DNA of 13,055 bases from Clostridium sp. 27_14 (GCA_001916035.1 MNRQ01000021.1:57307-70361), one strand, 5' to 3'. Positions 1-13,055 are shown, counted from the first letter of the stretch. Numbers and translations: made by a program. Notes: generated by a model from the sequence alone, not told the origin.

Positions 1-120
1 ATAATAAAAAAATAATAATAAAAAAATAATAATAAAAAAATAATAATAAAAAAATAATAATAAAAAATAATAATAAAAAATAATAATAAATAAATAATAA
101 TAATAATAATAAATAAAAAT
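1..120. repeat. AT-only tandem repeat with unit TAATAATAAAAAAA (14 nt, about 4.5 copies), decaying to 13-nt units and then (TAA)n. It is cut by the window edge.
   Basis: There is no G or C in 120 nt. T triplets fall at 13/16/19, 27/30/33, 41/44/47, 55/58/61, 68/71/74 and 81/84/87. The periods are therefore 14, 14, 14, 13, 13, followed by degenerate TAA repeats at 95..110. Confidence 0.85.
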
Positions 121-1824
121 TTATTTAAAATAAGAAATCATTTTTATTTTTTGAGGAATAAAAATTTTTTTACCATCTGACAAAAAAGACAAAGCAGAAA
201 AAGTTTCTAAATTCTGAGTAAAAAATTTTGTATCATAAATAAAATCATTTTGAATAACAGTACTATAAGATTCAGAAATATTAGAATTTTCAGAATTCAA
301 AGTATTAGTTATATAACTAAATTTTGTCTCTTTAGCATTTTCAGAAACACTTTTAGAAATTTTTTCTTTATCCTCTTTCCCTAATTGTTTTTGAGCCTCT
401 TCAATAGTAAAAATATCATCAGTTCTAAACCAAATTTTATTAACCAAATTTTGAATAATAACTTTAACACTAGCATCATCTTTAAGAGTATTTTTTAAAG
501 AAGAATAACTTTGAGTAGAAACAATATTAATACATTTAGCTTCTCTACTCATAGAAAAGAAATCAGCATCAGTTTTAGTACAAAATTTATCATACTCATC
601 ACAAACAAAAATATTTTTTTTAGCAATATTATTTGCCAAAAAAGACATAACCTCAGTTTGAAAGTCTAATTTCAAATAAGTAGCAATAATTTTAGACAAA
701 AATGTGTATTCTGAAACATTAATATTTAAAACAACAATTTTACCATTTTGAATAATATCAGAAAAACCATCAAAGTTTAATTTATCTTTTGGAGGACAAA
801 AAGTTGAACAAACATCATAATCTGAAACAAAAACATTAGTAATGCGAGTAATTTCAGAAACTAAAATACCTTTAGTACGTTCATCTAAGCACAAAAATTC
901 ATTTTGAAAAAAATTCAAACACTCATTTAATTCATAAATATCACGATTAGAAAAATTAGAGCTAACGAATAAATCACGTAAAAAGTTTACTTTAGAAAAA
1001 TAATAAGAAGTATCAGTAATCAACTTATGAAGTTCCAAAAAAGTAACATAGCCATTATTATATAATCTACATAATTTAATAGCCTCTGCTAAAATTTGTT
1101 CAGCTTTATCAAGCCAATAAGATTCAGAATTATTTTCAGAAAATAAAGTTAAAATTGTCTTTAAACGATTTGCCAAAATCTGAGGTTTCAAATTAGGCTT
1201 ATGCAAAGGATTGTAAAAAACATTGTTATGCAAAGAAATAACAAATAGATCATTTTGCAAATCATATTTGCAAACAATATTAGAAACATAATTATAAAAA
1301 TTACCTTTTACATCTAAAATAAGCATACCAAATTTATCAGTTAAATTTTCACTATTATATTTTATAAATTGTTCAACAAAAGGATAAATAGCTGAAGAAG
1401 TTTTACCAGTTCCAATAGTCCCAGTAATTAAAAAATTTTGAAATAAACCAGATTCTTGTAAATAAATAGGAGAATTATCAGAATAATTGTTACCAACAAA
1501 AAGACTAAAATTATTATTCAAAAACGAAATATCTGCAAATTCAGTAGTATTAAAAAAATTAAAATTCCTAAAAGAAAAATGAATAAAAAAACGGGTATAC
1601 AGAAACCTTATAAAAATAAAACTAGAAAAAGGAAAAGTAAAAAGATAAGTATTTTTAATAAAATTCCAAAGAACAGGCTGTGAAGAACAAATATCAAAAG
1701 GATGAATTGCGTAAGGAATAATAATTTCATCTGCTACATAAATAGGATAAAAAAATTTAAAATTTAAAACACAAAAAAATATAAAAAGAAAAAAGGAAAA
1801 GCAAAAAGAAAATTTATGACGAAT
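121..1824 (-). CDS. Membrane-anchored type IV coupling protein-like P-loop ATPase (VirD4/TraG/TraD family). The proposed start is ATT at 1824; the track start at 1521 is a TTG.
   Basis: The frame stays open for 101 codons upstream of the track start and contains no ATG, GTG or TTG. The SD GGAGGTGA (1836..1829) lies 7 nt before the in-frame ATT at 1824..1822. The extension encodes two hydrophobic segments, FSFCFSFFLFIFFCVLNF and TYLFTFPFSSFIFIRFLY. The soluble part carries Walker A GTIGTGKTSS (~1399..1422), ILDVKG, YNPL, Walker B IFVCDEY and SREAKCINIVSTQSYSSL. That is the motif order typical of T4CPs. The stop is TAA at 121. Confidence 0.7.
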   Translation of the reverse strand: MRHKFSFCFSFFLFIFFCVLNFKFFYPIYVADEIIIPYAIHPFDICSSQPVLWNFIKNTYLFTFPFSSFIFIRFLYTRFFIHFSFRNFNFFNTTEFADISFLNNNFSLFVGNNYSDNSPIYLQESGLFQNFLITGTIGTGKTSSAIYPFVEQFIKYNSENLTDKFGMLILDVKGNFYNYVSNIVCKYDLQNDLFVISLHNNVFYNPLHKPNLKPQILANRLKTILTLFSENNSESYWLDKAEQILAEAIKLCRLYNNGYVTFLELHKLITDTSYYFSKVNFLRDLFVSSNFSNRDIYELNECLNFFQNEFLCLDERTKGILVSEITRITNVFVSDYDVCSTFCPPKDKLNFDGFSDIIQNGKIVVLNINVSEYTFLSKIIATYLKLDFQTEVMSFLANNIAKKNIFVCDEYDKFCTKTDADFFSMSREAKCINIVSTQSYSSLKNTLKDDASVKVIIQNLVNKIWFRTDDIFTIEEAQKQLGKEDKEKISKSVSENAKETKFSYITNTLNSENSNISESYSTVIQNDFIYDTKFFTQNLETFSALSFLSDGKKIFIPQKIKMISYFK

Positions 1825-1859
1825 AAAATCACCTCCAAAAAATAATTAAAAAAAGAAAA

Positions 1860-2006
1860 TTAAGAATTAATATTTCTTTTAATTTGTAATTTTGATCCTT
1901 GTTTGTTATGAAAAAACTTTATATAAAAAAACATATATAATGAATATAAAGAAATAAAAAAACAGATAATAAATGAAAAGAAAAATAAATTAATTAAGAA
2001 TTGCAT
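1860..2006 (-). CDS. Candidate 48-aa small membrane protein (MQFLINLFFFSFIICFFISLYSLYMFFYIKFFHNKQGSKLQIKRNINS), too short for the ORF track
   Basis: ATG at 2006 lies 4 nt after the SD-like AAGGTGGTGG (2020..2011). The ORF has one hydrophobic helix and a basic tail, and ends in TAA at 1862..1860. It stops 23 nt before the SD of the downstream ATPase gene. 48 stop-free codons is notable in such AT-rich DNA. Confidence 0.4.
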   Translation of the reverse strand: MQFLINLFFFSFIICFFISLYSLYMFFYIKFFHNKQGSKLQIKRNINS

Positions 2007-2062
2007 AATTCCACCACCTTTAAGAATGGATTGCAAAACTATAATACAACAAAATTATTAAT

Positions 2063-2091
2063 TTGTCTATACTTTTTTTAAAAAATATGAT
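2063..2091 (+). promoter_or_regulatory. Sigma-A-type promoter candidate for the DUF1858 gene
   Basis: TTGTCT (2063..2068), a 17-nt spacer, then TATGAT (2086..2091), about 50 nt upstream of the ATG at 2143. Confidence 0.4.
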
Positions 2092-2142
2092 AAAATTAAA
2101 AAAATACCAAAATTTATAAAATAGAAAAGGAGGATATAAGCA

Positions 2143-2328
2143 ATGGAAATAAATAAAGACACAACAATAGGAGAAATATTAGAAAAAGCTCCAGAAAAAG
2201 CAGAATTATTACTAGAAGTAGGTATGCATTGTTTAGGATGTCCAGCTTCACAAATGGAGACATTAGAAGAAGCATGTGCAGTACATGGAATAGATGTAAA
2301 CGAAGTTGTTGAAAAATTAAATAAATAA
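2143..2328 (+). CDS. DUF1858 protein (hybrid-cluster-protein-associated redox disulfide domain)
   Basis: 61 aa with the family-typical GMHCLGCP...LEEAC..HGID signature. RBS AAAGGAGG (2128..2135) lies 7 nt before the ATG. Stop is TAA. Confidence 0.85.
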   Translation: MEINKDTTIGEILEKAPEKAELLLEVGMHCLGCPASQMETLEEACAVHGIDVNEVVEKLNK

Positions 2329-2352
2329 TCAAGCAAAAATAACATAAAAAGA

Positions 2353-2408
2353 GCGGATAAAAACAAAAAAATATAAAGAATTAAAAAATCCGCATCTTTG
2401 TTTTTTAT
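2353..2408 (+). terminator. Weak terminator candidate after the DUF1858 gene
   Basis: GCGGAT (2353..2358) pairs with ATCCGC (2388..2393), followed by CTTTGTTTTTTAT. The 29-nt A-rich loop is atypically long, so confidence is low. Confidence 0.3.
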
Positions 2409-2457
2409 ACACAGAATATACAAAAACAATAAATTTTAAAAAATTTGTAAAAAAGTA

Positions 2458-2486
2458 TTGACAAATGTAAAAAAACATAGTATTAT
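2458..2486 (+). promoter_or_regulatory. Strong sigma-A promoter of the tRNA cluster
   Basis: TTGACA (2458..2463), a 17-nt spacer, then TATTAT (2481..2486), with an A-rich UP-like tract upstream. It shares GTATTGACAAAT and AGTATTATA with the promoter at 8829. Confidence 0.6.
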
Positions 2487-2514
2487 ATAAAAGCGTTATG
2501 GAGAACACGCAAAT

Positions 2515-2590
2515 GGGCTATTAGCTCAGGTGGTAGAGCACTTGACTTTTAATCAAGTTGTCCCGCGTTCGAGTCGCGGATAGCTCACCA
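2515..2590 (+). tRNA. trnK: tRNA-Lys (anticodon TTT), CCA encoded
   Basis: Folded by hand into a cloverleaf. Acceptor GGGCTAT/ATAGCTC, D stem GCTC/GAGC, anticodon stem CTTGA/TCAAG with loop CTTTTAA, T arm CCGCG-TTCGAGT-CGCGG. Confidence 0.9.
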
Positions 2591-2630
2591 AGAACTAAAT
2601 AACTAAAACAAACAGTTATTTAGTTCTTTA
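2591..2630 (+). terminator. Terminator-like perfect 14-bp hairpin directly after tRNA-Lys and inside the tRNA cluster
   Basis: AGAACTAAATAACT (2591..2604), a 9-nt loop, then AGTTATTTAGTTCT (2614..2627), followed by TTATATT. The next tRNA starts at 2637. Confidence 0.5.
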
Positions 2631-2636
2631 TATTAA

Positions 2637-2711
2637 GGCCCCGTGGTCAAGCGGTTAAGACATCGCCCTTTCACGGCGGAGACATGGGTTCGATTCCCGT
2701 CGGGGTCACCA
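2637..2711 (+). tRNA. trnE: tRNA-Glu (anticodon TTC), CCA encoded
   Basis: Acceptor GGCCCCG/CGGGGTC, anticodon loop CTTTCAC, T arm TGGGTTCGATTCCCG. It closely resembles canonical Firmicute tRNA-Glu. Confidence 0.9.
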
Positions 2712-2728
2712 AAATATTTATATATTTT

Positions 2729-2804
2729 GCCACTTTAGCTCAGCTGGTAGAGCATCGCACTTGTAATGCGAGGGTCATCCGTTCAAGTCGGATAAGTGGC
2801 TCCA
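2729..2804 (+). tRNA. trnT: tRNA-Thr (anticodon TGT), CCA encoded
   Basis: Acceptor GCCACTT/AAGTGGC, anticodon stem TCGCA/TGCGA with loop CTTGTAA, T arm ATCCG-TTCAAGT-CGGAT. Confidence 0.9.
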
Positions 2805-2823
2805 AAATTGTCAGTAGTTTTGC

Positions 2824-2851
2824 AAAAGCAGAATTACTGGCTTTTTGTTTT
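2824..2851 (+). terminator. Candidate rho-independent terminator of the tRNA operon
   Basis: AAAAGCAG (2824..2831), loop AATTA, then CTGGCTTTT (2837..2845, one bulged C), running into TTTTTGTTTT. Confidence 0.4.
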
Positions 2852-3033
2852 ACGCAAAACAAAAAAATAAATTCAACAAATATACAAAAATTCAATAAGA
2901 AATATAAATAATAAAAAATGCAAATATTCAATAAAAAATACAAATAAAATTGCTAAGCAAAGCAAATAATTTATAAAGAAAAGTAAAAAATTATACAAAT
3001 AATATAATAAAATCAGAAAGGAAAGCAAATAAA

Positions 3034-3768
3034 ATGGAAAAAAAAATTATAATAGTAACAGGTGCATCAAGAGGAATAGGAAAAGAAATAGCAAAAACAT
3101 TAGCAAAAGAAGGACATACAGTAATCGCAAATTATAACAAATCAGAAAAAGAAGCACAGAAATTAAAAGAAGAGTTAAAAAAAGAAAACAAAGAAATAGA
3201 AATATACAAAGCAGATATTTCAAAAGAAGAAGAAATAAAAAAAATGGTAGAATACACAATAAAAAAATATAAAAAAATAGATATTTTAATTAATAATGCA
3301 GGAATAGACAAAATACAATTATCAACAGAAGTGACAAAAAAAGATTGGGACGAAATAATAAACACAAATCTATATGGAACATTCTACATAACTCAACAAG
3401 TAACAAAAAACATGATACAAAATAAAAAAGGAAAAATAATAAATATATCATCAATATGGGGACAGATAGGAGCATCAATGGAAGTAGTATACTCAATATC
3501 AAAAGCAGGAGTAGACGGATTAACAAAAGCATTAGCAAAAGAATTAGGACCATCAGGAATACAAGTAAATTCAATAGCACCAGGATTTATAAAAACAGAA
3601 ATGAATGCAGGATACAATAAAAAAGAACTAGAAGAAATAAAAGACGAAATACCACTACAAAAATTAGGAGAATGTGAAGACATAGCAAGATGTATAAAAT
3701 GGCTTATAGAAGATAAATATGTAACAGGACAAATAATAGCAATAAATGGAGGATGGAGTATAACATAA
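3034..3768 (+). CDS. fabG: Short-chain dehydrogenase/reductase, 3-oxoacyl-ACP reductase (FabG)-like
   Basis: 244 aa with TGASRGIGKEIA (NAD(P)-binding), NNAG, the catalytic S...YSISKAG (Y-x3-K) and PGFIKTEM. RBS is GAAAGGAAAG. The gene is not within a fab operon, so the symbol is tentative. Confidence 0.8.
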   Translation: MEKKIIIVTGASRGIGKEIAKTLAKEGHTVIANYNKSEKEAQKLKEELKKENKEIEIYKADISKEEEIKKMVEYTIKKYKKIDILINNAGIDKIQLSTEVTKKDWDEIINTNLYGTFYITQQVTKNMIQNKKGKIINISSIWGQIGASMEVVYSISKAGVDGLTKALAKELGPSGIQVNSIAPGFIKTEMNAGYNKKELEEIKDEIPLQKLGECEDIARCIKWLIEDKYVTGQIIAINGGWSIT

Positions 3769-3781
3769 AAAAAGCTATTAG

Positions 3782-3814
3782 AAAAACAAAAAAAGGATAT
3801 TCATAAATATCCTT
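3782..3814 (-). terminator. Rho-independent terminator of the minus-strand CBM-like gene
   Basis: AAGGATAT (3793..3800), loop TCATAA, then ATATCCTT (3807..3814). On the minus strand the hairpin is followed by TTTTTTTGTTTTT (complement of 3782..3792+). Confidence 0.6.
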
Positions 3815-3826
3815 AAAAATCAACAA

Positions 3827-4306
3827 TTATTGAGCTTGATCAAAAGCTCTATTTTTTTTCTTATAATTTCCAGAAATCAATTTTGGAAGATAAGTAATAA
3901 TCTTATAAACAGCCAAACGAATTTTTTTACTCCATAAATAAGATTTTCTAAGTTTTCTAGGAGCACCAATAGAAGAAGGCACATCCTCTAAAACAATCAA
4001 TTCTGTTTGAGGTTTTTCCAATTGAAAAACATAATTTTGACCATCATTATTATCCCATTGACCATTAGAATTTCTAAAACAAAAATTAAAAGTATCACCT
4101 TCGCACAATAGAAGTTCAGCCTGAAAACCTAATTCCGTTTTTTCCATTTGAATCTCATTAATATTATCCCAATTATGACCAAAACCATAATGAATAAAAA
4201 CATCTTCAGATCCATCTTGAAAAAATTCACCAGTATAAGATATTTTAACATTACTATTTTCAATTAATTTATCAGTATTAAAAAATATATTTTTCATTAA
4301 TTCCAT
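3827..4306 (-). CDS. CBM25/CBM53-like carbohydrate (starch/glycogen)-binding module protein with a basic C-terminal tail
   Basis: Carries HYGFGHNW....M...GFQAEL......FNFCFRNSNGQWDNNDGQNYVF, the hallmark WDNN-x-G-x-NY pattern of CBM25/53. The start is moved to ATG 4306 because AAGGAG (4320..4315) lies 8 nt upstream of it. The track's TTG at 4312 is only 2 nt from the SD. Confidence 0.65.
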   Translation of the reverse strand: MELMKNIFFNTDKLIENSNVKISYTGEFFQDGSEDVFIHYGFGHNWDNINEIQMEKTELGFQAELLLCEGDTFNFCFRNSNGQWDNNDGQNYVFQLEKPQTELIVLEDVPSSIGAPRKLRKSYLWSKKIRLAVYKIITYLPKLISGNYKKKNRAFDQAQ

Positions 4307-4340
4307 GTTCAAAACTCCTTATTTATCTTTTGCTACAAAC

Positions 4341-4369
4341 ATTATAATATTAAAATCAACAATGTGCAA
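4341..4369 (-). promoter_or_regulatory. Sigma-A promoter candidate for the CBM-like gene
   Basis: Read on the minus strand: TTGCAC (4369..4364), a 17-nt spacer, then TATAAT (4346..4341). Confidence 0.5.
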
Positions 4370-4516: not shown

Positions 4517-4549
4517 TTTAAATAGAAAAAACAATAAGGGGAAATGAAA

Positions 4550-6466
4550 ATGGAAGAAAACTTAAAAGAACGAGAAGAAGAAAAGCAAAAAGAAGAAAAC
4601 ACAAAAAAAAGAGAAGAAGAATTTAAACAAATAAAAGAAAAACCAAAGAAAATAAAGAAAGAAAAAGACAAAATGAAAGAAAAAAAGAAAAAAAGAAAAT
4701 GGATACCAATAACAATATTGATAATATTAATAATGGGAATAATAATATCAACAATATTTGCATTTGCAAACATAAATAAAGAAACAATAGCAAGTGGAGT
4801 AAAAATAGAAGGAATAGATGTATCAGGACTATCAGCAGACGAAGCAAAAGGAAAACTAGAAACAATATATAAAGAAAAGCTAGAAACAGAAATACCAGTA
4901 CAATATAATGAATACGAATCAACAATAAATGCAAATCTATTTGAAACACAATACAATATAGAAAAAGCAGTAAAACAAGCAACTAACATAGGAAAAGGCG
5001 GAAACATATTTGAAAATAACTATAACATACTATTTGCACTAATAGGAAAAAAAGATATAAAAGTAGAAATGCAAATAAACGAAGAAGCAGCAAAAAAGAT
5101 AATAGAAGATTTAGGCACAAACCTACCAGGAGTAGTAATAGAATCATCATATTATATAGAAGACAATAAGCTAATAATAACAAAAGGACAATCAGGAGTA
5201 AAAATAAACACAGATAAAATGCTAGAAGAATTAAAAGAAAAACTAAAAGGAACAGAAAAAATAACAAACTATATAAACATACCAGTAACAGAAGAAAATC
5301 CAACAGCGATAGACATAGACAAAATACATGAAGAAATATATAAAGAAGTTAAAGACGCATATTACACACAAAACCCATTCGAAATACACCCAGAAGAAGA
5401 AGGAATAGACTTTGACGTAGAAACAGCTAAAAAAGCATTAGAAGAAGAAAAAGAAGAATATGAAATAGAACTAAAAATAACAAAACCAAAAGTAACAACA
5501 AGTCAAATAGGAACAGAAGCATTTCCAGACCAATTAGCAACATTCAGAACAAACTATGATGGAGGAGACAAAGACAGAACAACAAACCTACAAATAGCAT
5601 GCAACAAAATAAACGGAAAAGTAGTAATGCCAAATGAAACATTTTCATACAACAAAACATTAGGAGCAAGAACAGCAGCAGCAGGATACAAAAACGCAAA
5701 AGTATACGAAGCAGGCCAAGTAGTAGACGGAATAGGAGGAGGAATATGCCAAATATCAACAACACTATATAATACAGTATTAAGAGCCAATTTAGAAATA
5801 GTAGAAAGAAAAAACCATCAATTTGTAACATCTTATGTAGAAGCAGGAATGGATGCAACAGTAGTATACGGAATGACAGACTTCAAATTTAAAAACACAA
5901 GAAAATATCCAGTAAAAATAATAGCATCAGCAAAAAACGGAGTAGCAACAGTATCATTATACGGAATAAAAGAAAGTGAAGAATACACATTTTCATTTAG
6001 AACAGTAACAGTATCAACAATACCAACATCAACAAAATATGTAGACGATCCAACATTAGTAGTAGGAACAGAAAAAGTAAAACAAAAAGGAGCAAATGGC
6101 AAAAAAACAGAAACATACATGACAAAAATGTTAAATGGAAAAATAATAGAAACAAAAATCATATCAAGAGACATATATGACGCAATGCAAAGAATAGTAT
6201 TAAGAGGAACAAAAGGAGCAACAAACACAACAACTAAAACAGAAACAAACAATACAACAAAGGCAGAAACGACAAACACAAACAACGGAACAACAAACAA
6301 CAAAGAAACGAACAATAAAGAAACAAACTCAGGAACAACAAATAAACAACAAACAACACCGTCAACTGAAAAACAAAAAACAGACGCCACACCAACAAAT
6401 AATAATAAAACAACACAATCAACACAAAAAAGTGACAGCACAAAAACAAATGAGAAAGCAGAATAA
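4550..6466 (+). CDS. VanW family protein with an N-terminal charged region, one TM, a VanW domain, a G5 domain and a T/N/K-rich tail
   Basis: The TM is WIPITILIILIMGIIISTIFAFA. The VanW core is FSYNKTLGARTAAAGYKNA....GGGICQISTTLYN....ERKNH. The G5-like block is VDDPTLVVGTEKVKQKGANGKKTE...RIVLRGTK. Two in-frame ATGs exist at 4544 and 4550. AAGGGGA (4536..4542) favours 4550 by spacing, and 4544 is the alternative. Confidence 0.85.
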   Translation: MEENLKEREEEKQKEENTKKREEEFKQIKEKPKKIKKEKDKMKEKKKKRKWIPITILIILIMGIIISTIFAFANINKETIASGVKIEGIDVSGLSADEAKGKLETIYKEKLETEIPVQYNEYESTINANLFETQYNIEKAVKQATNIGKGGNIFENNYNILFALIGKKDIKVEMQINEEAAKKIIEDLGTNLPGVVIESSYYIEDNKLIITKGQSGVKINTDKMLEELKEKLKGTEKITNYINIPVTEENPTAIDIDKIHEEIYKEVKDAYYTQNPFEIHPEEEGIDFDVETAKKALEEEKEEYEIELKITKPKVTTSQIGTEAFPDQLATFRTNYDGGDKDRTTNLQIACNKINGKVVMPNETFSYNKTLGARTAAAGYKNAKVYEAGQVVDGIGGGICQISTTLYNTVLRANLEIVERKNHQFVTSYVEAGMDATVVYGMTDFKFKNTRKYPVKIIASAKNGVATVSLYGIKESEEYTFSFRTVTVSTIPTSTKYVDDPTLVVGTEKVKQKGANGKKTETYMTKMLNGKIIETKIISRDIYDAMQRIVLRGTKGATNTTTKTETNNTTKAETTNTNNGTTNNKETNNKETNSGTTNKQQTTPSTEKQKTDATPTNNNKTTQSTQKSDSTKTNEKAE

Positions 6467-6563
6467 ATAAAAACAAAACAATAAAAAAGTAAAAATTCAT
6501 AAAATATGTATAATAACATTTTATAAAAGCAAATATGTTACAACTTACTACAATACTAAAAAT

Positions 6564-6624
6564 AAAAACGGTACACAGGCTATAATAAGAATAAATCAAT
6601 TATATAGCACAAAGTACCGTTTTT
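6564..6624. terminator. Bidirectional terminator between the convergent VanW and dapA genes
   Basis: AAAAACGGTAC (6564..6574) pairs with GTACCGTTTTT (6614..6624), with an inner stem GCTATA (6579..6584)/TATAGC (6603..6608). An A-run lies on the left and a T-run on the right, so it can terminate both strands. Confidence 0.55.
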
Positions 6625-6682
6625 AATGTTATATATAATATAAAATGAAAAACAAAATGCAATTTATAAATTTTAAATAAAA

Positions 6683-7552
6683 TTATGCTAATAAATTATC
6701 CAAAAGTAATTTATTTTTAGAAGAAAGTTCAGAAAGAGGAAGTCTAGGAACACCAAAATCAAAGCCCAAAATATTAAGAGCATATTTAACAGGAATAGGA
6801 TTAACTTCACAAAAAAGAGCAGAAATAAGAGGCAATAAACCCAACTGCAAATTTTTAGAAGCAGACAAATTCCCATCAAAAAAAGAAGTAACCATATTAT
6901 GAGTCTCCAAAGGCTTAATATTAGACAAAACAGAAATAACACCAATACCACCTAAAGACAAAATAGGAATAACTTGATCATCATTTCCAGAATAAATAAA
7001 AAGATTATCATTACATAAAGCAGAGATTTTAGCAACCTGAGAAATATTACCACTAGCCTCCTTAATAGCAACAATATTAGAAACTTTAGAAAGTTCAAAA
7101 CAGGTTTCAGGTTCAATATTTACACCAGTTCTACTAGGAACATTATACAAAATAATCGGAATAGAAACACTTTCAGCAATTTTAGAATAATGTTTAATCA
7201 AACCAGACTGAGTACATTTATTATAATAAGGAGTAACAACTAAAAGACCGTCAGCCCCTAAGGACTCAGCCATTTTAGCATTAAAAATAGCCTTATTAGT
7301 ATCATTACTACCACAACCAACAATAATAGGAATTTTTTTATCAACAAAATCAACAGCACATTTTATAATAGAAGACTTTTCATCATCTGACATTGTAGAA
7401 GCTTCACCAGTCGTACCACAAACTATAATGCTATCAACAGAATTTAACAACTGAAAACTCAACAACTTTTCAAAAGCAGGAATATTAACACCATCAGAAT
7501 TAAAAGGAGTAGCAATAGCAGTACCAACACCCTTAAATAAAATTTTTTTCAA
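6683..7552 (-). CDS. dapA: 4-hydroxy-tetrahydrodipicolinate synthase
   Basis: Carries GVGTAIATPF, VCGTTGE and the YNVPSRTG motif typical of DapA. The start is moved to TTG 7552, giving MKKILFKG and 289 aa, a typical length, with GAAAGGG upstream. The track's GTG at 7588 has no RBS and adds 12 atypical residues. Confidence 0.85.
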   Translation of the reverse strand: MKKILFKGVGTAIATPFNSDGVNIPAFEKLLSFQLLNSVDSIIVCGTTGEASTMSDDEKSSIIKCAVDFVDKKIPIIVGCGSNDTNKAIFNAKMAESLGADGLLVVTPYYNKCTQSGLIKHYSKIAESVSIPIILYNVPSRTGVNIEPETCFELSKVSNIVAIKEASGNISQVAKISALCNDNLFIYSGNDDQVIPILSLGGIGVISVLSNIKPLETHNMVTSFFDGNLSASKNLQLGLLPLISALFCEVNPIPVKYALNILGFDFGVPRLPLSELSSKNKLLLDNLLA

Positions 7553-7612
7553 AACAAAATCAACCCTTTCAAAAATTATTAAAGACACAAAAAGTATCTC
7601 TAAAAAATATAT

Positions 7613-7658: not shown

Positions 7659-7677
7659 AAAATATATAAAATCAAAA

Positions 7678-8628
7678 TTAATTAAGCATATCCTTTTTCT
7701 TCAAAAGCCAAGTAACTAATAAAGTAAGAACTACAGAAACAAAAATCATAATTACAAAACCAAAAGGATTATTTTGAAAAGGAATCTGAACATTCATCCC
7801 CCAAAAACTAGAAATCATAGTAGGAACAGCAAGAACAATAGTAATAGAAGTCAAAGTTTTCATGACAGTATTAAGATTATTAGAAATTATAGAAGCATAA
7901 GCCTCCATAGTACCATTCAAAATATCACTATAAATCTTAGCCATCTCAATAGCCTGTCTATTCTCAATAATAGCATCCTCAAGAATATCCTCATCCTCAT
8001 CATATAACTTAATAATTTTACCCTTCAAAGTTTTTTCCATAACCAATTCATTAGACTTTAAAGAAGTAGTAAAATAAACCAAACCTTTTTCCAAACTTAA
8101 CATTTTCAAAAGCTCTTTATTTTTCATAGAATTTTTTAATATATACTCAGCAATTTCAGTTTCCTTATTAATTTGTTTCAAATTAGTCAAAAAATAAGAA
8201 GAATTCAAATAAAGAATTTGAAAAATAAAACGAGTTTTTTTATAAGTTTGAAAATTTTTAATTTTACGTTTTTCAAAATCCTCAATAACCTTATTTTTTC
8301 TCAAAGAAACAGTAATAAAAAAATCATCTCTAACAACAATCATCCCTAAAGGCATAGTAGAATAAATATCACTCTCTTCAGATTTTTCCTTTATAGGAAC
8401 ATCAACAACAAACAAAATAGTTTCATCATCTTCCTCAGTATCAATTCTAGCCTTTTCCTCAAAATCCAAAGCATCACGTATAAAATCTTCTTGAATATTA
8501 ATACTATCACAAACTTTTTTAATTTCATCTTCCGAAGGATTTACGAGATTAATCCAACTTCCTTTTTTGAATTCTTTTATTTCTTCAAATTTGTTAGTAT
8601 CTACATCTGTATTATAAATTTTAATCAT
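7678..8628 (-). CDS. corA: CorA family magnesium/cobalt transporter
   Basis: 316 aa with an acidic N-terminal cytoplasmic domain, two C-terminal TM helices and the signature FWGMNV (GMN motif). Starts at ATG and stops at TAA. Confidence 0.9.
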   Translation of the reverse strand: MIKIYNTDVDTNKFEEIKEFKKGSWINLVNPSEDEIKKVCDSINIQEDFIRDALDFEEKARIDTEEDDETILFVVDVPIKEKSEESDIYSTMPLGMIVVRDDFFITVSLRKNKVIEDFEKRKIKNFQTYKKTRFIFQILYLNSSYFLTNLKQINKETEIAEYILKNSMKNKELLKMLSLEKGLVYFTTSLKSNELVMEKTLKGKIIKLYDEDEDILEDAIIENRQAIEMAKIYSDILNGTMEAYASIISNNLNTVMKTLTSITIVLAVPTMISSFWGMNVQIPFQNNPFGFVIMIFVSVVLTLLVTWLLKKKDMLN

Positions 8629-8742
8629 TATAAATCACATTCCTTTCTCGCATAGCTAAATAAAACTAGCCCAAATCCCTCATATACGCAAAATAGACTA
8701 AAAAAACAAAAATTTCTTTAATCGAACATATACTATATAATA

Positions 8743-8771
8743 ATTTTAAACTGATTTGGTAAAATTGTCAA
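8743..8771 (-). promoter_or_regulatory. Sigma-A promoter candidate for corA
   Basis: Read on the minus strand: TTGACA (8771..8766), a 17-nt spacer, then TAAAAT (8748..8743). This implies a leader of about 108 nt. Confidence 0.5.
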
Positions 8772-8828
8772 TAGATTCAAAAAACAATTTACATAAAACT
8801 ACAGACAATAAAAAAATAAACAATTGTA

Positions 8829-8858
8829 TTGACAAATAAATAAAAAAAGTATTATAAT
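8829..8858 (+). promoter_or_regulatory. Strong sigma-A promoter of tRNA-Lys(CTT)
   Basis: TTGACA (8829..8834), an 18-nt spacer, then TATAAT (8853..8858). It shares GTATTGACAAAT and AGTATTATA with the promoter at 2458. Confidence 0.6.
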
Positions 8859-8891
8859 GAATACGCAAAAGAAAAAATAATAATAAAAAAT

Positions 8892-8967
8892 GCACCATTA
8901 GCTTAGTTGGTAAAGCAGCTGACTCTTAATCAGAAGACCCTCGGTTCGAGTCCGAGATGGTGCACCA
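8892..8967 (+). tRNA. trnK: tRNA-Lys (anticodon CTT), CCA encoded
   Basis: Acceptor GCACCAT/ATGGTGC, D stem GCTT/AAGC, anticodon loop CTCTTAA, T arm CTCGG-TTCGAGT-CCGAG. The anticodon stem has 4 bp plus one G-A mismatch at 27:43. Confidence 0.85.
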
Positions 8968-9047
8968 AAAATAAAAATAAATATATAAAAAAGTGAATAA
9001 CAAAAGAAAAAAAGCAAAAAATAAAGAAAAAACAAGGAGGAAATAAA

Positions 9048-9587
9048 ATGGAATTAAAAGGAAGTAAAACAGAAAAAAATTTAATGGAAGCATTTGCAGG
9101 AGAATCACAAGCAAGAAACAAATACACATATTTTGCAAGTAAAGCAAAAAAAGAAGGATATGAGCAAATAGCAGCAATATTCCAAGAAACAGCAGATAAC
9201 GAAAAAGAACACGCAAAACTATGGTTCAAATTATTAAACGGAGGAGAAATAGGAACAACAGAAGAAAACTTAAAAGCAGCAGCAGAAGGAGAAAACTATG
9301 AATGGACAGACATGTATGAAAGAATGGCAAAAGAAGCTAGAGAAGAAGGATTTGACCACATAGCATACCTATTTGACGGAGTAGCAAAAATCGAAAAAGA
9401 ACATGAAGAAAGATACAAAAAATTATTAGAAAATGTAAAAGACGGAAAAGTATTTGAAGCAGGAGAAATAAAAATCTGGAAATGCAGAAACTGCGGACAC
9501 ATAGTAGTAGGAACAAAAGCACCAGAAATATGTCCAATATGTGCACACCCAAAAGCATACTTTGAAATAAAAGCAGAAAACTATTAA
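9048..9587 (+). CDS. rbr: Rubrerythrin
   Basis: 179 aa with an N-terminal ferritin-like diiron domain ([13 protein letters not shown] twice). The C-terminal rubredoxin-like domain is CRNCG...CPICAH. RBS AAGGAGG lies 7 nt before the ATG. Confidence 0.9.
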
Positions 9588-9596
9588 TAAAAAGTA

Positions 9597-9638
9597 AAAA
9601 ACTCAAATTATAAAAACTATTTTATAATTTGAGTTTTT
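9597..9638. terminator. Bidirectional terminator between the convergent rbr and CapA-family genes
   Basis: A perfect 19-bp stem, AAAAACTCAAATTATAAAA (9597..9615) pairing with TTTTATAATTTGAGTTTTT (9620..9638), with the 4-nt loop ACTA. U-runs are available on both strands. Confidence 0.75.
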
Positions 9639-9683
9639 TCAGAAGAAAAGCACTCAATAATATAATTAAGAGCCAAATAAAAC

Positions 9684-10973
9684 TTAAAATTTATCACCAA
9701 GAATACTCTTAATTTTCTGAAGTTGAACTTTAAGATACTCATATTTAGCCTTACCAATAGAAGTATCCAAACCAGCATCAAATCTAGCAATAGATTTCTC
9801 AATATTCAAAAGTTTAAATTTATGAGAAGAAACATTAGGATTCTTATACATATAAATAGGAACATAGGAAATACTATCAAAAGAAAGTTTTTTATCAGAA
9901 TCAAAAGAAAGATTCAAATTCAAAATAATAGAATTACGAGTATTTTCAGCATTCTGATCACAAATAAAATTTCCCAAAGCATAAATAACAAAACAATCCT
10001 TAGAAGAACCATCAGACAAAGTAACAGTTCTTTTTTCCATAGGCTCCAAGGTATGAGGATGATTACCCAAAATAATATCAACACCATTCTGAAACAAAAA
10101 GTCAGCCAAATCAATTTGTTCATCATTAGCAGTAGTCCTATACTCAGTACCCCAATGCATACAAGCAACAATAATATCAGCCTCTTCAGATTTCGCCTTA
10201 TCAATTTGAGATTTAATCAAATCTCTATTAATCAAATTAACACAAAAATCCTTCCCCTTAGGAACAGGAATACCATTAGTTCCGTATGTATAATCAATAA
10301 AAGCAATTTTAATACCCTTAACAGTTTTAAACAAAATCTCCTTTTGAGCCTCTTCAGATTTATAAGTACCCAGATGAGAAATACCATAAGAATCCAAAAC
10401 ATCAATAGTCCTAGAAAGACCAGAAAAGCCCATATCCAAACAATGATTACCAGCAGTAGAAATAACATCAACGCCAATATCAGCAACAGCCTTAGCCAAG
10501 CTATCAGGAGAATTAAAAGTCGGATAATTACTATAACCACGATCCTTACCCGCAAAGCTAGTCTCCAAATTAGCAACAGTAATATCAGGAGATAAAGTAT
10601 AATCTTTAATATCATCAAAAACATAAGAAAAATCATACTCATCAGTAGACTTAATATAAGCATCCCAATACTGAGTATTATGACACATAATATCACCAAT
10701 AGCAGTCAAAGTAAAAGACGTCTTAAACTTTTTATTAATATCATCATTTTTTTGAGAATCATCAGAATCAGAACTATCATCTAAAGAAACAACTTCATTA
10801 GACTTTTTAGACAAACTCCTTAAAATATTATAATTTTTAACTTTAGTAAAAACAAAAAGAAATAAAAAAATAACAGCAAAAACTAAAACAGTAAAAAATA
10901 AAAAACGAATACCCTTTGAAGCAAAACGTCTAGGATTACCATAACCACGAGTATTTCTACGATTTCTCGCCAT
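9684..10973 (-). CDS. CapA family (PGA_cap metallophosphatase-like) membrane-anchored protein
   Basis: The N-terminus is basic with a TM (MARNRRNTRG...FLFFTVLVFAVIFLFLFVF). Metallophosphoesterase-type motifs are AIGDIMCH, GNHCLD, ACMHWGTEY and LGNHPH. The start is moved to ATG 10973 because AAGGGGAG lies 6 nt upstream of it. The track's TTG at 10991 overlaps that SD. Confidence 0.85.
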   Translation of the reverse strand: MARNRRNTRGYGNPRRFASKGIRFLFFTVLVFAVIFLFLFVFTKVKNYNILRSLSKKSNEVVSLDDSSDSDDSQKNDDINKKFKTSFTLTAIGDIMCHNTQYWDAYIKSTDEYDFSYVFDDIKDYTLSPDITVANLETSFAGKDRGYSNYPTFNSPDSLAKAVADIGVDVISTAGNHCLDMGFSGLSRTIDVLDSYGISHLGTYKSEEAQKEILFKTVKGIKIAFIDYTYGTNGIPVPKGKDFCVNLINRDLIKSQIDKAKSEEADIIVACMHWGTEYRTTANDEQIDLADFLFQNGVDIILGNHPHTLEPMEKRTVTLSDGSSKDCFVIYALGNFICDQNAENTRNSIILNLNLSFDSDKKLSFDSISYVPIYMYKNPNVSSHKFKLLNIEKSIARFDAGLDTSIGKAKYEYLKVQLQKIKSILGDKF

Positions 10974-11074
10974 ATAAAACTCCCCTTTCAAAAAGCAAGA
11001 ACAAAAATAAACATTAATAAAATTAGTACTTATTAGAACATTTTAAAGTTCGTGCATATTTAATATCTACAAAC

Positions 11075-11102
11075 ATTATAGCAAAATTTGTAAAAAATTC
11101 AA
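11075..11102 (-). promoter_or_regulatory. Sigma-A promoter candidate (extended -10) for the CapA-family gene
   Basis: Read on the minus strand: TTGAAT (11102..11097), a 16-nt spacer ending in TGC, then TATAAT (11080..11075). Confidence 0.45.
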
Positions 11103-11249
11103 TAAAAATAAAAGAATAAATTTTTAAAAAAAGAAAATAATAGTATTAGAAAGAATAGAAAAAATATAAGAAACTTAAAAAATAGAAAATTGAAAAAAAC
11201 TACAAAATCAATCATGTATTTTTTAAGAAACTTAGGAAAGGGGTTAAAA

Positions 11250-11438
11250 ATGAAAGTTATAGATAAAATAGCACTAGTATTAATCATAATAGGTGCAATA
11301 AATTGGGGACTAATAGGATTTTTTAATTTCAACCTAGTAGGAACGATATTTGGAGATATGACAGTAATATCAAGAATAATTTATGCATTAGTAGGAATAT
11401 CAGGAATATGGGGAATAAAACTATTATTTGATGACTAA
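11250..11438 (+). CDS. DUF378 family small membrane protein
   Basis: 62 aa, MKVIDKIALVLIIIGAINWGLIGFF.......YALVGISG, with two TM helices and the family-typical GAINWGL motif. The start is moved to ATG 11250 because GGAAAGGGG lies 6 nt upstream. The track's TTG at 11190 has no RBS. Confidence 0.8.
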   Translation: MKVIDKIALVLIIIGAINWGLIGFFNFNLVGTIFGDMTVISRIIYALVGISGIWGIKLLFDD

Positions 11439-11527
11439 AAATATTATAATTGAATATAAAGTAATTAAATTGTAAAAATCGAAAAGATAGCTTACAGAAA
11501 ACAAAAAAAGAACTAAAAAATTAATAA

Positions 11528-11590
11528 AAAGAACTCTATCTTGAACTCAATATCCAATTTAGTAGGGTATAGTTCAAAATGGAGTTCTTT
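11528..11590 (+). other. Long interrupted hairpin, either the distal terminator of the DUF378 gene or an uncharacterised structured RNA
   Basis: AAAGAACTC (11528..11536) pairs with GAGTTCTTT (11582..11590), and TTGAACT (11541..11547) pairs with AGTTCAA (11571..11577). There is a 4x4 internal loop and a 23-nt apical loop. It is followed only by TTTAAAATT. Confidence 0.4.
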
Positions 11591-11646
11591 AAAATTAGGT
11601 ATTAACCTTCAAAATGTTCTCTTTTTGAATCATATTCAGCTGAAAC

Positions 11647-11675
11647 TTGAAAAAAAGCAAAAAATATTATATAAT
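11647..11675 (+). promoter_or_regulatory. Sigma-A promoter candidate for the ABC-F gene
   Basis: TTGAAA (11647..11652), a 17-nt spacer, then the consensus TATAAT (11670..11675). A small inverted repeat, TGAAT-CAT-ATTCA (11626..11638), lies just upstream. Confidence 0.55.
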
Positions 11676-11710
11676 AGCAAAAATGAAAAAAAGAGAGAGG
11701 AGAAAATAAA

Positions 11711-13055
11711 ATGTTAAATGCAAACGGAGTCACAGTAAGATTTGGAAAAAGAGTATTATTTGAAGATGTAAATATCAAATTTACAAAAGGAAACTGTTAC
11801 GGAATAATAGGAGCAAACGGAGCAGGAAAATCAACATTTTTAAAAGTACTATCAGGAGAAATAGAACCAAGCAAAGGAGACGTAAGTCTAGAAAAAGGAG
11901 CAAGACTATCAGTACTAAAACAAGACCACTTTGCATATGAAGACTACACAGTAATAGACACAGTAGTAATGGGAAACAAAGAACTATACAGTATAATGAA
12001 AGAAAAAGACGCAATATATAGCAAACCAGACTTCTCAGAAGAAGACGGAATGAAAGCAGCAAAACTAGAAGAAAGATTTGCAGAATTAGACGGATGGAAC
12101 GCCGAATCAGACGCAGCAATGTTACTAAACGACTTAGGAATAGCACCAGAAGACCACTATAAACAAATGAAAGAAATAGAACCAAGAATAAAAGTAAAAA
12201 TCTTACTAGCACAAAGCCTATTCGGAAACCCAGACGTATTACTATTAGACGAACCAACAAACGACTTAGACCTAAAAAGCATAGAATGGTTACAAGAATT
12301 TCTAATAAACTACGAAAACACAGTAATAGTAGTATCACATGACAGATACTTCCTAAACAAAGTATGTACATATATAGCAGATGTAGACTTTGGAAAAATA
12401 ACACTATACCCAGGAAACTACGACTTCTGGTATGAATCAAGTCAATTAGCATTAAAACAAGCAAGAGAACAAAACAAGAAAAAAGAAGAAAAAATAAAAG
12501 AACTACAAGACTTCATAGCAAGATTCAGTGCAAACGCCTCAAAATCAAAACAAGCAACATCAAGAAAAAAGACACTAGAAAAAATACAACTAGACGAAAT
12601 AAAACCATCAAACAGAAAATATCCATATGTAGACTTCAAACCAGACAGAGAACCAGGAAAAGAAATACTACAAGTAAAAAATATATCAAAAACAGTAGAC
12701 GGAGTAAAACTACTAAACAACATATCATTCACAGTAAAACAAGACAACAAAATAGCATTTTTAGCAGACAACGAAAACGCAAAAACAATATTATTCCAAA
12801 TAATAGCAGGAGAAATAGAACCAGACGAAGGAGAACTAATATGGGGAACAACAATAACACAAAGCTATTTCCCAAAAGACAACAACTACCTATTTGAAAC
12901 AAACGAAAATATAACAGACTGGCTAAGAAAATACTCAAAAGACCCAGACGAAACATACGTAAGAAGTTTTTTAGGAAGAATGTTATTCTCAGGAGACGAA
13001 GCACTAAAAGAAGTAAAAGTACTATCAGGAGGAGAAAAAGTAAGATGTGTATTAT
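11711..13055 (+). CDS. ABC-F family ATPase, YbiT-like translation factor, 3'-truncated by the window end. It is absent from the ORF track because no stop is reached.
   Basis: ATG 11711 follows GAGAGGAG. The translation MLNANGVTVRFGKRVLFEDVNIKFTKGNCYGIIGANGAGKSTFLKVLSGEIEP...LLLDEPTNDLD...VSHDRYFLN...FSANASKSKQATSRKK...LSGGEKVR aligns along its length with my recollection of E. coli YbiT. The frame is open through 13055, about 448 codons. Confidence 0.9.
   Translation, partial: MLNANGVTVRFGKRVLFEDVNIKFTKGNCYGIIGANGAGKSTFLKVLSGEIEPSKGDVSLEKGARLSVLKQDHFAYEDYTVIDTVVMGNKELYSIMKEKDAIYSKPDFSEEDGMKAAKLEERFAELDGWNAESDAAMLLNDLGIAPEDHYKQMKEIEPRIKVKILLAQSLFGNPDVLLLDEPTNDLDLKSIEWLQEFLINYENTVIVVSHDRYFLNKVCTYIADVDFGKITLYPGNYDFWYESSQLALKQAREQNKKKEEKIKELQDFIARFSANASKSKQATSRKKTLEKIQLDEIKPSNRKYPYVDFKPDREPGKEILQVKNISKTVDGVKLLNNISFTVKQDNKIAFLADNENAKTILFQIIAGEIEPDEGELIWGTTITQSYFPKDNNYLFETNENITDWLRKYSKDPDETYVRSFLGRMLFSGDEALKEVKVLSGGEKVRCVL

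Follow-up and report, generated by a model that had tools for sequence, protein, structure and literature searches.

The stretch of DNA analysed here, 13,055 nt long and called the window, comes from a common, uncultured, low-GC gut Clostridia bacterium with a genome of ~1.7 Mb (contigs of 1.69-1.72 Mb). Its features are listed in Table 1. Gene orientation in the window is balanced, with ~5.0 kb on each strand.

Table 1. Features of the window, with coding-strand AT skew at third codon positions (AT3) and base counts at four-fold degenerate sites
Feature	Coordinates	Strand	Codon ending	AT3 skew	4-fold sites	Remarks
TraG/VirD4-like coupling ATPase gene	121..1521	-	T	-0.44	A15 T118	Pfam PF10412/PF12696
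Spacer where bias strength steps up	1522..2142	.				From binned profile
DUF1858 gene	2143..2328	+	A	+0.54		
tRNA-Lys(UUU), tRNA-Glu(UUC), tRNA-Thr(UGU)	2515..2804	all +				
SDR/FabG-like gene	3034..3768	+	A	+0.72	A71 T3	
CBM53-domain gene	3827..4312	-	T	-0.33	A5 T36	
VanW/G5 gene	4544..6466	+	A	+0.75	A221 T6	
dapA	6683..7588	-	T	-0.63	A5 T112	
corA	7678..8628	-	T	-0.46	A6 T79	
tRNA-Lys(CUU)	8892..8967	+				
Rubrerythrin gene (rbr)	9048..9587	+	A	+0.73	A50 T1	
CapA/PGA_cap gene	9684..10991	-	T	-0.72	A4 T137	
DUF378 gene	11190..11438	+	A	+0.53		
ABC-F ATPase gene	11711..13055	+				Most extreme gene; continues past window end

Base composition and codon choice on the two strands

The window holds A6306 T3244 C1845 G1660, and AT skew is positive in every 1-kb segment of it (+0.10 to +0.57). 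The AT3 ranges of + and - genes do not overlap (+0.53 to +0.75 versus -0.33 to -0.72), and GC3 skew ranges from +0.45 to +0.87 in - genes but is mostly below zero in + genes. The strand component that is independent of orientation amounts to +0.65 for AT3 and -0.63 for GC3. At four-fold sites the + strand is ~93-100% A in either gene orientation; pooled over the window and its right flank, + genes have A1709 T51 G16 C89 and - genes T553 A47 G23 C13. Individual codons show the same opposition between + and - genes: GGA/GGT counts are 102/3 versus 7/56, ATA/ATT 147/5 versus 13/145, AAC/AAT 68/40 versus 6/129 and TTA/TTG 59/2 versus 51/72. A full-length copy of the ABC-F ATPase gene from the same species has A174 T0 G0 C3 at four-fold sites and C/(C+T) of 0.74 at two-fold sites.

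An earlier sequence-only reading had described this flip of codon choice with orientation from hand counts of third positions, which were reproduced exactly for the first 30 codons of rbr (A21 T5 G2 C2) and of dapA from TTG 7552 (T22 A4 G4 C0); its base counts for 3061-3120 (A32 T7 G14 C7) and 7021-7080 (A23 T16 G8 C13) were also recovered. The effect is stronger than was then claimed. Computed gene by gene, third-position skew separates cleanly by strand in the window; the sampled region covers ~75 kb of a 1.69-Mb contig (-24 to +49 kb from oriC). Long spurious ORFs, earlier ascribed to the scarcity of T, are present in T-/A-poor frames. The proposed shift in protein composition was borne out for K, E and T in + genes and for F, L and S in - genes, and failed for N and I: the amino acids higher in + genes are E, K, A, G and T, and those higher in - genes are S, F, L, D and N.

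Skew is larger at third codon positions and four-fold sites than at positions 1-2. Non-coding DNA shares it, with A exceeding T on the + strand in each of the 20 spacers that measure 30 bp or more in the window and right flank (pooled skew +0.37). T and G are thus almost gone from the + strand at silent sites and in spacers, in both gene orientations. As spacers are far less skewed than four-fold sites (+0.9), either they are constrained or a coding-specific factor contributes; the coding-strand term K, which favours A, is small (~0.3 ln units).

Errors of assembly or sequencing, or a chimeric contig, might be suspected from the long-read contigs with split genes, which probably reflect homopolymer errors. 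However, more than 16 assemblies made independently in different studies, from short as well as long reads, contain the same sequence and gene order (98.8-99.7% identity), and CorA is indexed in 1732 blocks. This recovery refutes an artefact, whose probability we consider negligible.

Strand-flipped orthologues, relatives and strain polymorphism

Orthologues that have changed strand are especially informative. Four-fold sites of corA are A6/T79 here (-) and A76/T5 in the relative L005 (+), despite 83.5% amino acid identity, and those of dapA are A5/T112 here (-) versus A98/T9 in L005 (+). A histidine kinase whose orthologues lie on opposite strands in sister species has A220/T1 versus A51/T168. 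Since codon usage in all three flips with the strand, gene-specific and translational selection are ruled out. The bias belongs to the DNA strand and not to transcription direction or the gene, because it is seen in both orientations, in spacers and in strand-flipped orthologues; the earlier statement that it is not transcription-coupled therefore stands.

Selection on codons or nucleotide cost (preference for A-ending codons, avoidance of stop codons, cheap amino acids) has been argued to be the source of Firmicute AT skew (PMC3174206). The stronger skew of four-fold sites relative to spacers and the small coding-strand term towards A would fit such selection. Genes on + and - prefer opposite codons, however, and an orthologue that switches strand switches its preference too, so that the shared optimal codons of translational selection are absent. 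Moreover, skew peaks at four-fold sites instead of positions 1-2, the reverse of the published selection signature (PMC3174206), and single nucleotide polymorphism (SNP) fluxes are balanced rather than dominated by A>T. The flipping codons and balanced flux largely refute codon or cost selection, which is very improbable.

At the same syntenic locus, four-fold AT skew of the + strand is graded among relatives, in both gene orientations: ~0.4 in L003, ~0.45 in L040, ~0.5 in L027, ~0.75 in L005 and ~0.93 in the window species. The relatives' + strand has A:T of ~2.5:1 at this locus, whichever way genes point. On the + strand of relatives that share the synteny, G exceeds C, unlike in the window species (C > G).

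The direction of recent mutation was read from low-frequency, third-position SNPs among 16 strains, as per-site rates on the + strand. The rate ratio was 2.1 for G>A/C>T (p=0.012), 3.6 for T>C/A>G (p=1e-4) and 4.2 for T>A/A>T (p=0.006), and the asymmetry pointed the same way in + and - genes. Flux into A equalled flux out of A (35/35), which fits mutational equilibrium and not selection against symmetric mutation. As the SNP asymmetries match composition, the silent-site asymmetry is mutational, as first surmised, and still ongoing; it is also lineage-specific. Transcription, translational selection and artefact are excluded as its sources.

The origin and the course of the bias around it

The window occupies the interval ~21-34 kb right of a canonical oriC (rpmH<-|->dnaA-dnaN-recF-gyrB-gyrA), an arrangement recovered in many independent assemblies. 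Clusters of DnaA boxes flank dnaA (-0.25 to -0.03 kb and +1.46 to +1.61 kb). Right of oriC ~70% of genes and all tRNAs are on the + strand, and in the 24 kb to its left 19 of 19 called genes point left; a search from -24 to +49 kb around oriC yielded no dif-like site. From position and gene orientation, the + strand is predicted to be leading, and most probably is, assuming that oriC fires bidirectionally. The minus strand had previously been taken as leading, with the tRNAs and rbr on the lagging strand. The location right of oriC, the orientation of genes and tRNAs and the G>C of the relatives' + strand speak against the former view, and with + leading by position the latter would fall with it.

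Right of oriC, A and C rather than G and T are enriched on the strand that shares the orientation of dnaA>gyrA. If + is leading, as is most probable, polarity is thus reversed relative to the classical leading strand, which is rich in G+T. In mutation-accumulation lines of B. subtilis, mutations at C are commoner on the leading strand and those at T on the lagging strand (PMC11890065); both transition asymmetries would then run opposite to those lines (PMC11890065).

Classical polarity would be restored if - were leading and forks crossed the window leftwards, the - strand becoming G+T-rich through C>T and A>G damage to the lagging-strand template while it is single-stranded. Both transition polarities would then match B. 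subtilis and classical theory (PMC11890065, PMC3269012), and the transition-type skews do keep their sign across oriC, with the overall profile declining leftwards, gradually or in steps, over ~70 kb, as expected of mixed fork direction. Such a scheme needs an active origin to the right of the sampled region and would turn the dnaA area into a broad, termination-like zone where forks meet. That area, however, has the gene order, bipartite DnaA-box clusters and divergent genes of a canonical Firmicute origin, genes on either side and all tRNAs are oriented accordingly, and the dif-like site is lacking over the same -24 to +49 kb. Syntenic relatives also have G>C and A>T on +, and A excess on this strand rises continuously across species without reversal. 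We consider leftward forks unlikely, if the most serious alternative to a leading + strand.

At oriC, ln(A/T) at four-fold sites of the + strand jumps from ~-0.06 on the left to +1.63 on the right. The sequence-only reading had expected a sign switch at ori, and held that a sign which never switches anywhere in a closed genome would speak against replication bias. The outcome is mixed and counts partly against it: the A/T term falls to ~0 at oriC, with no mirror-image inversion in the 24 kb to its left, and the C/T and G/A components stay constant (C/(C+T) ~0.2 and G/(A+G) ~0.07 on the + strand on both sides). Leading-strand (-) genes of the left 24 kb have A ~ T, G/(A+G) of 0.1-0.3 and C/(C+T) of 0.05-0.16, a pattern that agrees between two lineages ~13% diverged.

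To the right of oriC, binned bias strength is 1.3-1.9 ln units at 0-23 kb and ~3.2 beyond. G/(A+G) on the + strand is uniformly saturated low and C/(C+T) climbs with position (0.2, 0.2, 0.24, 0.22, 0.45 and 0.68 from left to right over 75 kb), in steps as much as in a gradient. Across the spacer of Table 1, + strand ln(A/T) at four-fold sites of - genes rises from 1.6 to 2.9, and C/(C+T) increases likewise (0.22 before it, 0.41-0.50 after); DnaA boxes, iterons and strong hairpins were sought in this spacer and none was seen. The TraG/VirD4-like gene before it (G/(A+G) 0.22) belongs to an 'intermediate' domain, with milder bias than the genes to its right. Stepwise strengthening is not predicted by a single fixed origin. 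Polarity and geometry are anomalous; missing mirror symmetry and rightward steps suggest that fork direction near the origin may be non-standard.

Equal absolute-strand polarity on both sides of oriC, with stepwise or graded intensity, could also arise from a fixed-strand process loosely related or unrelated to forks, giving a strand pair like that of mitochondrial DNA (mtDNA) with position-dependent intensity; the signature is the mtDNA pattern (PMC3269012). The - strand might repeatedly become single-stranded through rolling-circle or conjugative (Hfr-like) processing, T4SS-like and DnaD/DnaI-like modules near oriC might be the source of such exposure, or extra plasmid-type origins might create a multi-origin initiation zone. 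Genes for VirB4-like, TraC-like, TrbC, VirD4-like and DnaB_2/IstB proteins do occur on either side of oriC, interspersed with housekeeping genes, and these modules are also kept in a relative. No relaxase, oriT or iterons were identified, however, exposure by transfer would have to dominate every cell's ancestry, and relatives with the same modules have just moderate skew. This process is accordingly rated improbable.

Proposed copying-linked mutation bias and comparable systems

The explanation we favour, at a probability of roughly 0.55, is a strand-specific chromosomal mutation bias tied to the direction of DNA copying, with + as the leading strand and polarity reversed. It sits less well with the missing mirror image left of oriC, the stepwise strength, the transition asymmetries opposed to those of B. 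subtilis and the weaker skew of spacers. The + strand would lose T (T>C, T>A) and G (G>A) much faster than it undergoes the complementary changes, equivalent to A>G, A>T and C>T on the - strand. Silent sites would be pushed to ~95% A on + and ~90% T on -, and amino acid usage would be dragged along. This may be an exaggerated clade-wide habit, as the moderate A excess of relatives on this strand suggests, with a newly gained transition asymmetry on top that inverted GC skew. The likeliest enzymology would be G.T/T.G (and T.T) mispairs that go uncorrected during discontinuous synthesis of the - strand or, alternatively, A and C being deaminated there. In this small genome of ~1.7 Mb, either may be amplified by a lost or weakened repair or proofreading function.

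Firmicutes are known for purine asymmetry and atypical, PolC-associated AT skew (PMC4070872, PMC3174206, SkewDB PMC8941118). This low-GC representative of the Bacillota likewise has more A than T on the strand that runs in the direction of dnaA. In S. aureus and C. difficile, however, AT skew follows the sense strand, resides at positions 1-2 and vanishes without gene-strand bias (PMC4070872, PMC3174206, PMC8941118), whereas here it is bound to the DNA strand in both orientations and peaks at four-fold sites, with balanced gene orientation and C>G, not G>C. The selection-driven Firmicute skew of Charneski et al. is thus rejected for this locus, where skew is strand-bound, at position 3 and orientation-balanced.

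The H and L strands of vertebrate mtDNA are likewise A+C-rich and G+T-rich at four-fold sites, one of them undergoing both A>G and C>T; the C>T effect is saturated throughout and the A>G effect grows with position (PMC3269012). Unlike mtDNA, which replicates by strand displacement, the replicon here is a bacterial chromosome of 1.7 Mb whose DnaA origin is canonical, and its position dependence has steps. To our knowledge, strand-displacement replication is not known for DnaA-origin bacterial chromosomes of 1.7 Mb.

Replichore-asymmetric chromosomes in SkewDB resemble this one in that skew strength differs strongly across the origin (PMC8941118). SkewDB gives GC-skew slopes of a few percent in cultured genomes, offers no explanation for replichore asymmetry and, unlike what is seen here, reports no near-monobasic silent sites (PMC8941118).

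Separation of codon usage by replication strand is known from Borrelia burgdorferi, Treponema pallidum, Chlamydia, Buchnera, Blochmannia, Bartonella and Lawsonia (PMC2671203). As in the Borrelia type, the strand rather than the gene sets the third position, amino acids follow, both orientations show the pattern and third-position skews sort genes cleanly by strand, whatever their function; non-coding DNA is skewed too, and here the recent polymorphism spectrum is also strand-asymmetric. In contrast to that type, the predicted leading strand is A+C-rich, not G+T-rich, and there is no mirror inversion at oriC within 24 kb. The strand bias is real, mutational and specific to this lineage, and its size is without precedent. 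The earlier estimate of at least Borrelia strength was, if anything, cautious: strand components computed for Borrelia lp54 are ~0.15-0.3 versus 0.65-0.9 in this species, a skew index ~3-5x as large, with A:T odds of ~30:1 versus ~1.4:1.

Strand-dependent silent sites in the window and its relatives

The window is rich in A on the strand as read (A 6306, T 3244, C 1845, G 1660; 26.8% G+C over 13,055 bp) and carries 11 protein genes and four tRNAs in near-balanced orientation, with about 5.0 kb each way. The + strand encodes DUF1858, SDR/FabG-like, VanW, rubrerythrin and DUF378 proteins, an ABC-F ATPase (incomplete, continuing past the window end) and tRNA-Lys, tRNA-Glu, tRNA-Thr and tRNA-Lys. 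The - strand encodes a TraG/VirD4-like ATPase, a CBM53 protein, DapA, CorA and CapA. An Rfam search of the window returned nothing beyond the four tRNAs.

The sequence-only reading had proposed that silent-site codon choice follows the DNA strand, and a recount gave numbers identical to all of its hand counts. All + genes had a coding-strand AT skew at third positions (AT3) between +0.53 and +0.75, and all - genes one between -0.33 and -0.72; the corresponding GC3 skew lay between +0.45 and +0.87 in - genes and was mostly below zero in + genes. Individual codon pairs behaved in the same manner: GGA/GGT numbered 102/3 in + genes and 7/56 in - genes, ATA/ATT 147/5 and 13/145, AAC/AAT 68/40 and 6/129, and TTA/TTG 59/2 and 51/72. 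The strand component (the mean over both gene orientations, which cancels coding-strand effects) was +0.65 for AT3 and -0.63 for GC3. Pooled four-fold sites of the window plus its right flank were A1709 T51 G16 C89 in + genes and T553 A47 G23 C13 in - genes, and those of the ABC-F gene were A174 T0 G0 C3. A exceeded T on the + strand in every spacer (pooled skew +0.37), and the window is, as first noted, full of long false ORFs.

Codon usage governed by strand-specific mutational bias is of a known kind, found in Borrelia and others (PMC2671203), and the bias here had been suggested to be at least as strong as such classic cases. With the same script, strand components of Borrelia burgdorferi lp54 were only 0.15-0.3, and published phylum averages for coding-sequence skew associated with replication reach a maximum near 0.1 (PMC2031905). 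The silent-site strand asymmetry of the window is thus genuine, exceeds chance by far and surpasses the classic cases. As 16 strains match the window at 98.8-99.7% identity, an assembly or sequencing artefact is excluded.

Gene order around the ABC-F gene is kept in relatives, several genes are inverted between species, and silent sites follow the strand. At four-fold sites corA (83.5% amino acid identity) has A6 T79 on the - strand of the window species and A76 T5 on the + strand of the relative L005; dapA has A5 T112 on - and A98 T9 on +, and a histidine kinase A220 T1 on + and A51 T168 on - in the same two genomes. Since the codon usage of orthologues flips with the strand, gene-specific or translational selection is excluded. 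At the shared locus, + strand four-fold AT skew rises from ~0.4 (L003) through 0.45 (L040), 0.5 (L027) and 0.75 (L005) to 0.93 in the window, in both gene orientations; along this series + strand C/(C+T) climbs from ~0.1 to ~0.6 and G/(A+G) drops from ~0.1 to 0.03. The skew is thus a clade-wide trait that has escalated in the window species.

The window lies beside oriC

A leftward walk from the window by exact-protein look-ups reached dnaA. In the window orientation, the genes to its left are all on the - strand (TrbC, TrbC, ..., parB, parA, rsmG, mnmG, mnmE, jag, yidC, yidD, rnpA, rpmH), and dnaA, dnaN, a gene-less A-rich tract, recF, gyrB, TraC-like and VirB4-like genes, two unknown genes and gyrA follow on the + strand. 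IstB-like, DnaB_2 and other genes and TraG lie on the - strand between gyrA and the rest of the window. DnaA boxes, perfect or nearly so, are clustered directly 5' of dnaA and between dnaA and dnaN; this region is the bipartite Firmicute oriC. The window lies ~21-34 kb to its right, and ~70% of right-side genes and all tRNAs are on the + strand, which is therefore the predicted leading strand. Position thus lends no support to the proposals that the minus strand is leading and that the tRNAs and rbr sit on the lagging strand. If oriC fires normally, the leading strand is A+C-rich here, the reverse of the classical polarity. In Bacillus subtilis, mutations of C are commoner on the leading strand and mutations of T on the lagging one (PMC11890065); the + strand of the window, if leading, has both transition asymmetries reversed.

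Silent-site composition was followed from ~-24 to +49 kb from dnaA (homologous contigs reach ~-33 kb).

Silent-site composition across oriC, in + strand terms (binned four-fold and two-fold sites, with ln(A/T) from four-fold sites; left of dnaA, sister lineage; right, window species)
Distance from dnaA (kb)	ln(A/T)	C/(C+T)	G/(A+G)
-25 to -14	-0.36	0.19	0.07
-14 to 0	-0.06	0.21	0.08
0 to 16	+1.63	0.24	0.05
16 to 23	+1.60	0.22	0.06
23 to 32	+2.9 to +3.5	0.41-0.50	0.03-0.04
32 to 50	+2.9 to +3.65	0.65-0.70	0.02-0.03

The coding-strand term is only ~0.3 ln units. Composition shifts at oriC, where the A/T component drops to about 0 on the left and does not invert within 24 kb, so the anticipated sign switch was not seen and there is no mirror image: leading-strand genes left of oriC have A roughly equal to T and more G-ending than C-ending codons, and those on the right have A far above T and more C-ending than G-ending codons. 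The transition-type asymmetry keeps its absolute-strand polarity across oriC. Spacer AT skew was -0.03 on the left versus +0.42 on the right. A second increase in strength, at ~+23 kb, coincides with the spacer between TraG and DUF1858/tRNAs, in which there were no DnaA boxes, iterons, convincing hairpins or recognisable origin or oriT.

The non-mirrored pattern is not the transient state of one strain, since the window species (L113) and the sister lineage (L103-L107, 12.7% diverged) agree gene by gene. It is unlikely that the left block was imported recently or that fork direction changed recently, as both lineages share the intermediate values. In a more distant relative (L117/L118; RecF 77% identical) the two sides of oriC look roughly like mirror images, each with a moderate coding-strand excess of A over T. 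There, coding strands carry more A than T in recF, gyrB and the genes left of rpmH, whereas dnaA and dnaN have T at or above A at four-fold sites (AT4 -0.07 to -0.17); the compositional switch of this species seems to fall 3' of dnaN, not 5' of dnaA.

Mutation, selection and replication geometry

Low-frequency third-position SNPs among the 16 strains, polarised by the majority and expressed for the + strand, were asymmetric in per-site rate: G>A exceeded C>T 2.1-fold (p = 0.012), T>C exceeded A>G 3.6-fold (p = 1e-4) and T>A exceeded A>T 4.2-fold (p = 0.006), the same way in + and - genes. Fluxes into and out of A were equal (35/35), as were A>T and T>A (8/8) despite four times as many A sites. 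Such balance is the expectation of mutational equilibrium and not of selection against symmetric mutation. Spacers are far less skewed than four-fold sites; either they are constrained (hairpins, promoters, ribosome-binding sites) or there is a coding-specific addition.

Left of oriC, third-position SNPs (2 among six A-lineage strains, 14 among three B-lineage strains) were too few to decide, amid patchy recombination tracts. In six strains (L111-L116) third-position diversity around the origin was 2.95% in gyrB and 1.7% in the VirB4-like gene and 0% in dnaA, dnaN, yidC, jag and a 238-aa gene, which also suggests recombination tracts. A/B-lineage substitutions polarised with L117 gave T-loss of one polarity on both sides of oriC; this was discounted, as the outgroup approaches saturation and the ratio could stem from the base composition of the outgroup itself.

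The best supported interpretation is an ongoing strand-specific mutational bias tied to chromosome copying, which exaggerates a clade-wide tendency. Uncorrected G.T, T.G and T.T mispairs while the - strand is synthesised discontinuously may be its source, or alternatively deamination of A and C on that strand; a lost repair function would amplify either. Three geometries remain. The oriC may fire bidirectionally as normal, which does not account for the arm asymmetry; the origin may be displaced, multiple or largely unidirectional, making + leading on both sides; or the polarity may be classical, as first proposed, with forks meeting at the dnaA region. A terminus at that region was rejected, as no dif-like site was found from ~-24 to +49 kb.

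In vertebrate mitochondria, an A+C-rich strand faces a G+T-rich one, the consequence of C>T is saturated and that of A>G depends on position (PMC3269012); the composition pattern found here resembles this. This likeness, together with T4SS-like and DnaD/DnaI-like modules among the housekeeping genes around oriC, keeps alive a model in which one fixed strand is exposed as single-stranded DNA, although no relaxase or oriT was seen. Our most far-reaching reading, to which we give a probability of only about 0.3, is that this free-living gut bacterium has an mtDNA-like asymmetry of absolute strand that is not mirrored at the origin. One strand would lose A and C to the left and to the right of a canonical oriC, with intensity rising in steps, through non-standard replication (an origin that is displaced or not the only one, a fork that runs largely in one direction, or a template that stays single-stranded for long) and a lost repair function; no cellular chromosome would be known with a stronger strand bias in composition.

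Strand skews are the chief computational handle on bacterial replication and the chief natural record of replication-linked mutagenesis, with values of a few percent in known genomes. The skew here is almost saturating and changes measurably between sister species of equal synteny. No report was found in the literature on the skew of this organism or on a cellular chromosome with near-monobasic silent sites; SkewDB lists asymmetric replichore skews without explanation (PMC8941118). New here would be the anomalous polarity and the non-mirrored origin. With the host abundant in hundreds of public gut metagenomes, existing data can address which lesion or polymerase error lies behind AT skew in PolC bacteria, whether such skew arises by mutation at all (against Charneski et al.), at what speed codon and amino acid usage respond to gene inversion, and whether replication geometry can depart from the symmetric bidirectional model. 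On a practical level, gene callers, codon-based predictors of horizontal transfer or expression, k-mer binning and origin finders misbehave on such genomes.

The host genome and further features

By exact-protein look-ups the window species is extremely common, with CorA indexed in 1732 blocks, and near-complete single contigs exist (CAXVQW010063528.1, 1.69 Mb, with dnaA at about 665.4 kb; ERZ28757995 contig_8763, 1.72 Mb). Uncultured low-GC gut Clostridia MAGs encode proteins 81-92% identical to the ABC-F protein. Among species-representative genomes the best ABC-F match is only 92% identical, though the species is in hundreds of assemblies; the species may lack an entry among these representatives, perhaps because binning or quality control is thrown off by its composition. 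Split gyrB and dnaN genes, intact in other assemblies, are probably homopolymer errors of long-read assembly in a genome rich in A runs.

Coordinates of features in the window and in homologous contigs
Feature	Sequence	Coordinates	Remarks
T4SS-like/replication-module genes	window	121-1521	
	L099	4932-9604; 12672-18132	
	L107	10001-20429	
Spacer at second step	window	1522-2142	
ABC-F leader	window	11440-11710	270 bp, 5' of ABC-F gene
dnaN-recF tract	L113	8058-10000	~+2.8 to +4.8 kb from dnaA start
	L103	7566-10001	
dnaA, dnaN of distant relative	L117	6102-8904	
	L118	6241-9079	
Split gyrB	L099 (1.69-Mb NCBI contig)	2191-4120	440 + 190 aa
Split dnaN	L105 (1.47-Mb contig)	6325-7444	150 + 147 aa

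Attenuator leaders are frequent in ABC-F resistance and regulatory genes; the leader in the window had no Rfam match. The gene-less tract directly right of oriC (1.9-2.5 kb, 12-20% G+C, ~65-80% A on the + strand) consists of degenerate A-rich tandem repeats with periods of 6-438, and the corresponding gap in L117 is only ~1.1 kb.

Both left and right of oriC, genes of T4SS-like and replication modules are mixed in among core housekeeping genes. These include TrbC pilins, two opposed TraC-like/VirB4-like pairs, a coupling ATPase of VirD4-like type, an M23 peptidase of 1784 aa, and DnaB_2 with an IstB/DnaC-like loader. The gyrB-TraC-like-VirB4-like order is also kept in L117. Homologues of the peptidase were one protein at 69% identity and metagenome matches at 56-80%, whose contigs all break at one shared repeat. 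Four independent contigs homologous to the left T4SS island (L119, L120, L121 and L124) share a 284-aa gene downstream of the 1.8-kaa peptidase and all stop ~100 bp past it, probably at an assembly-breaking repeat (an rRNA operon or IS?).
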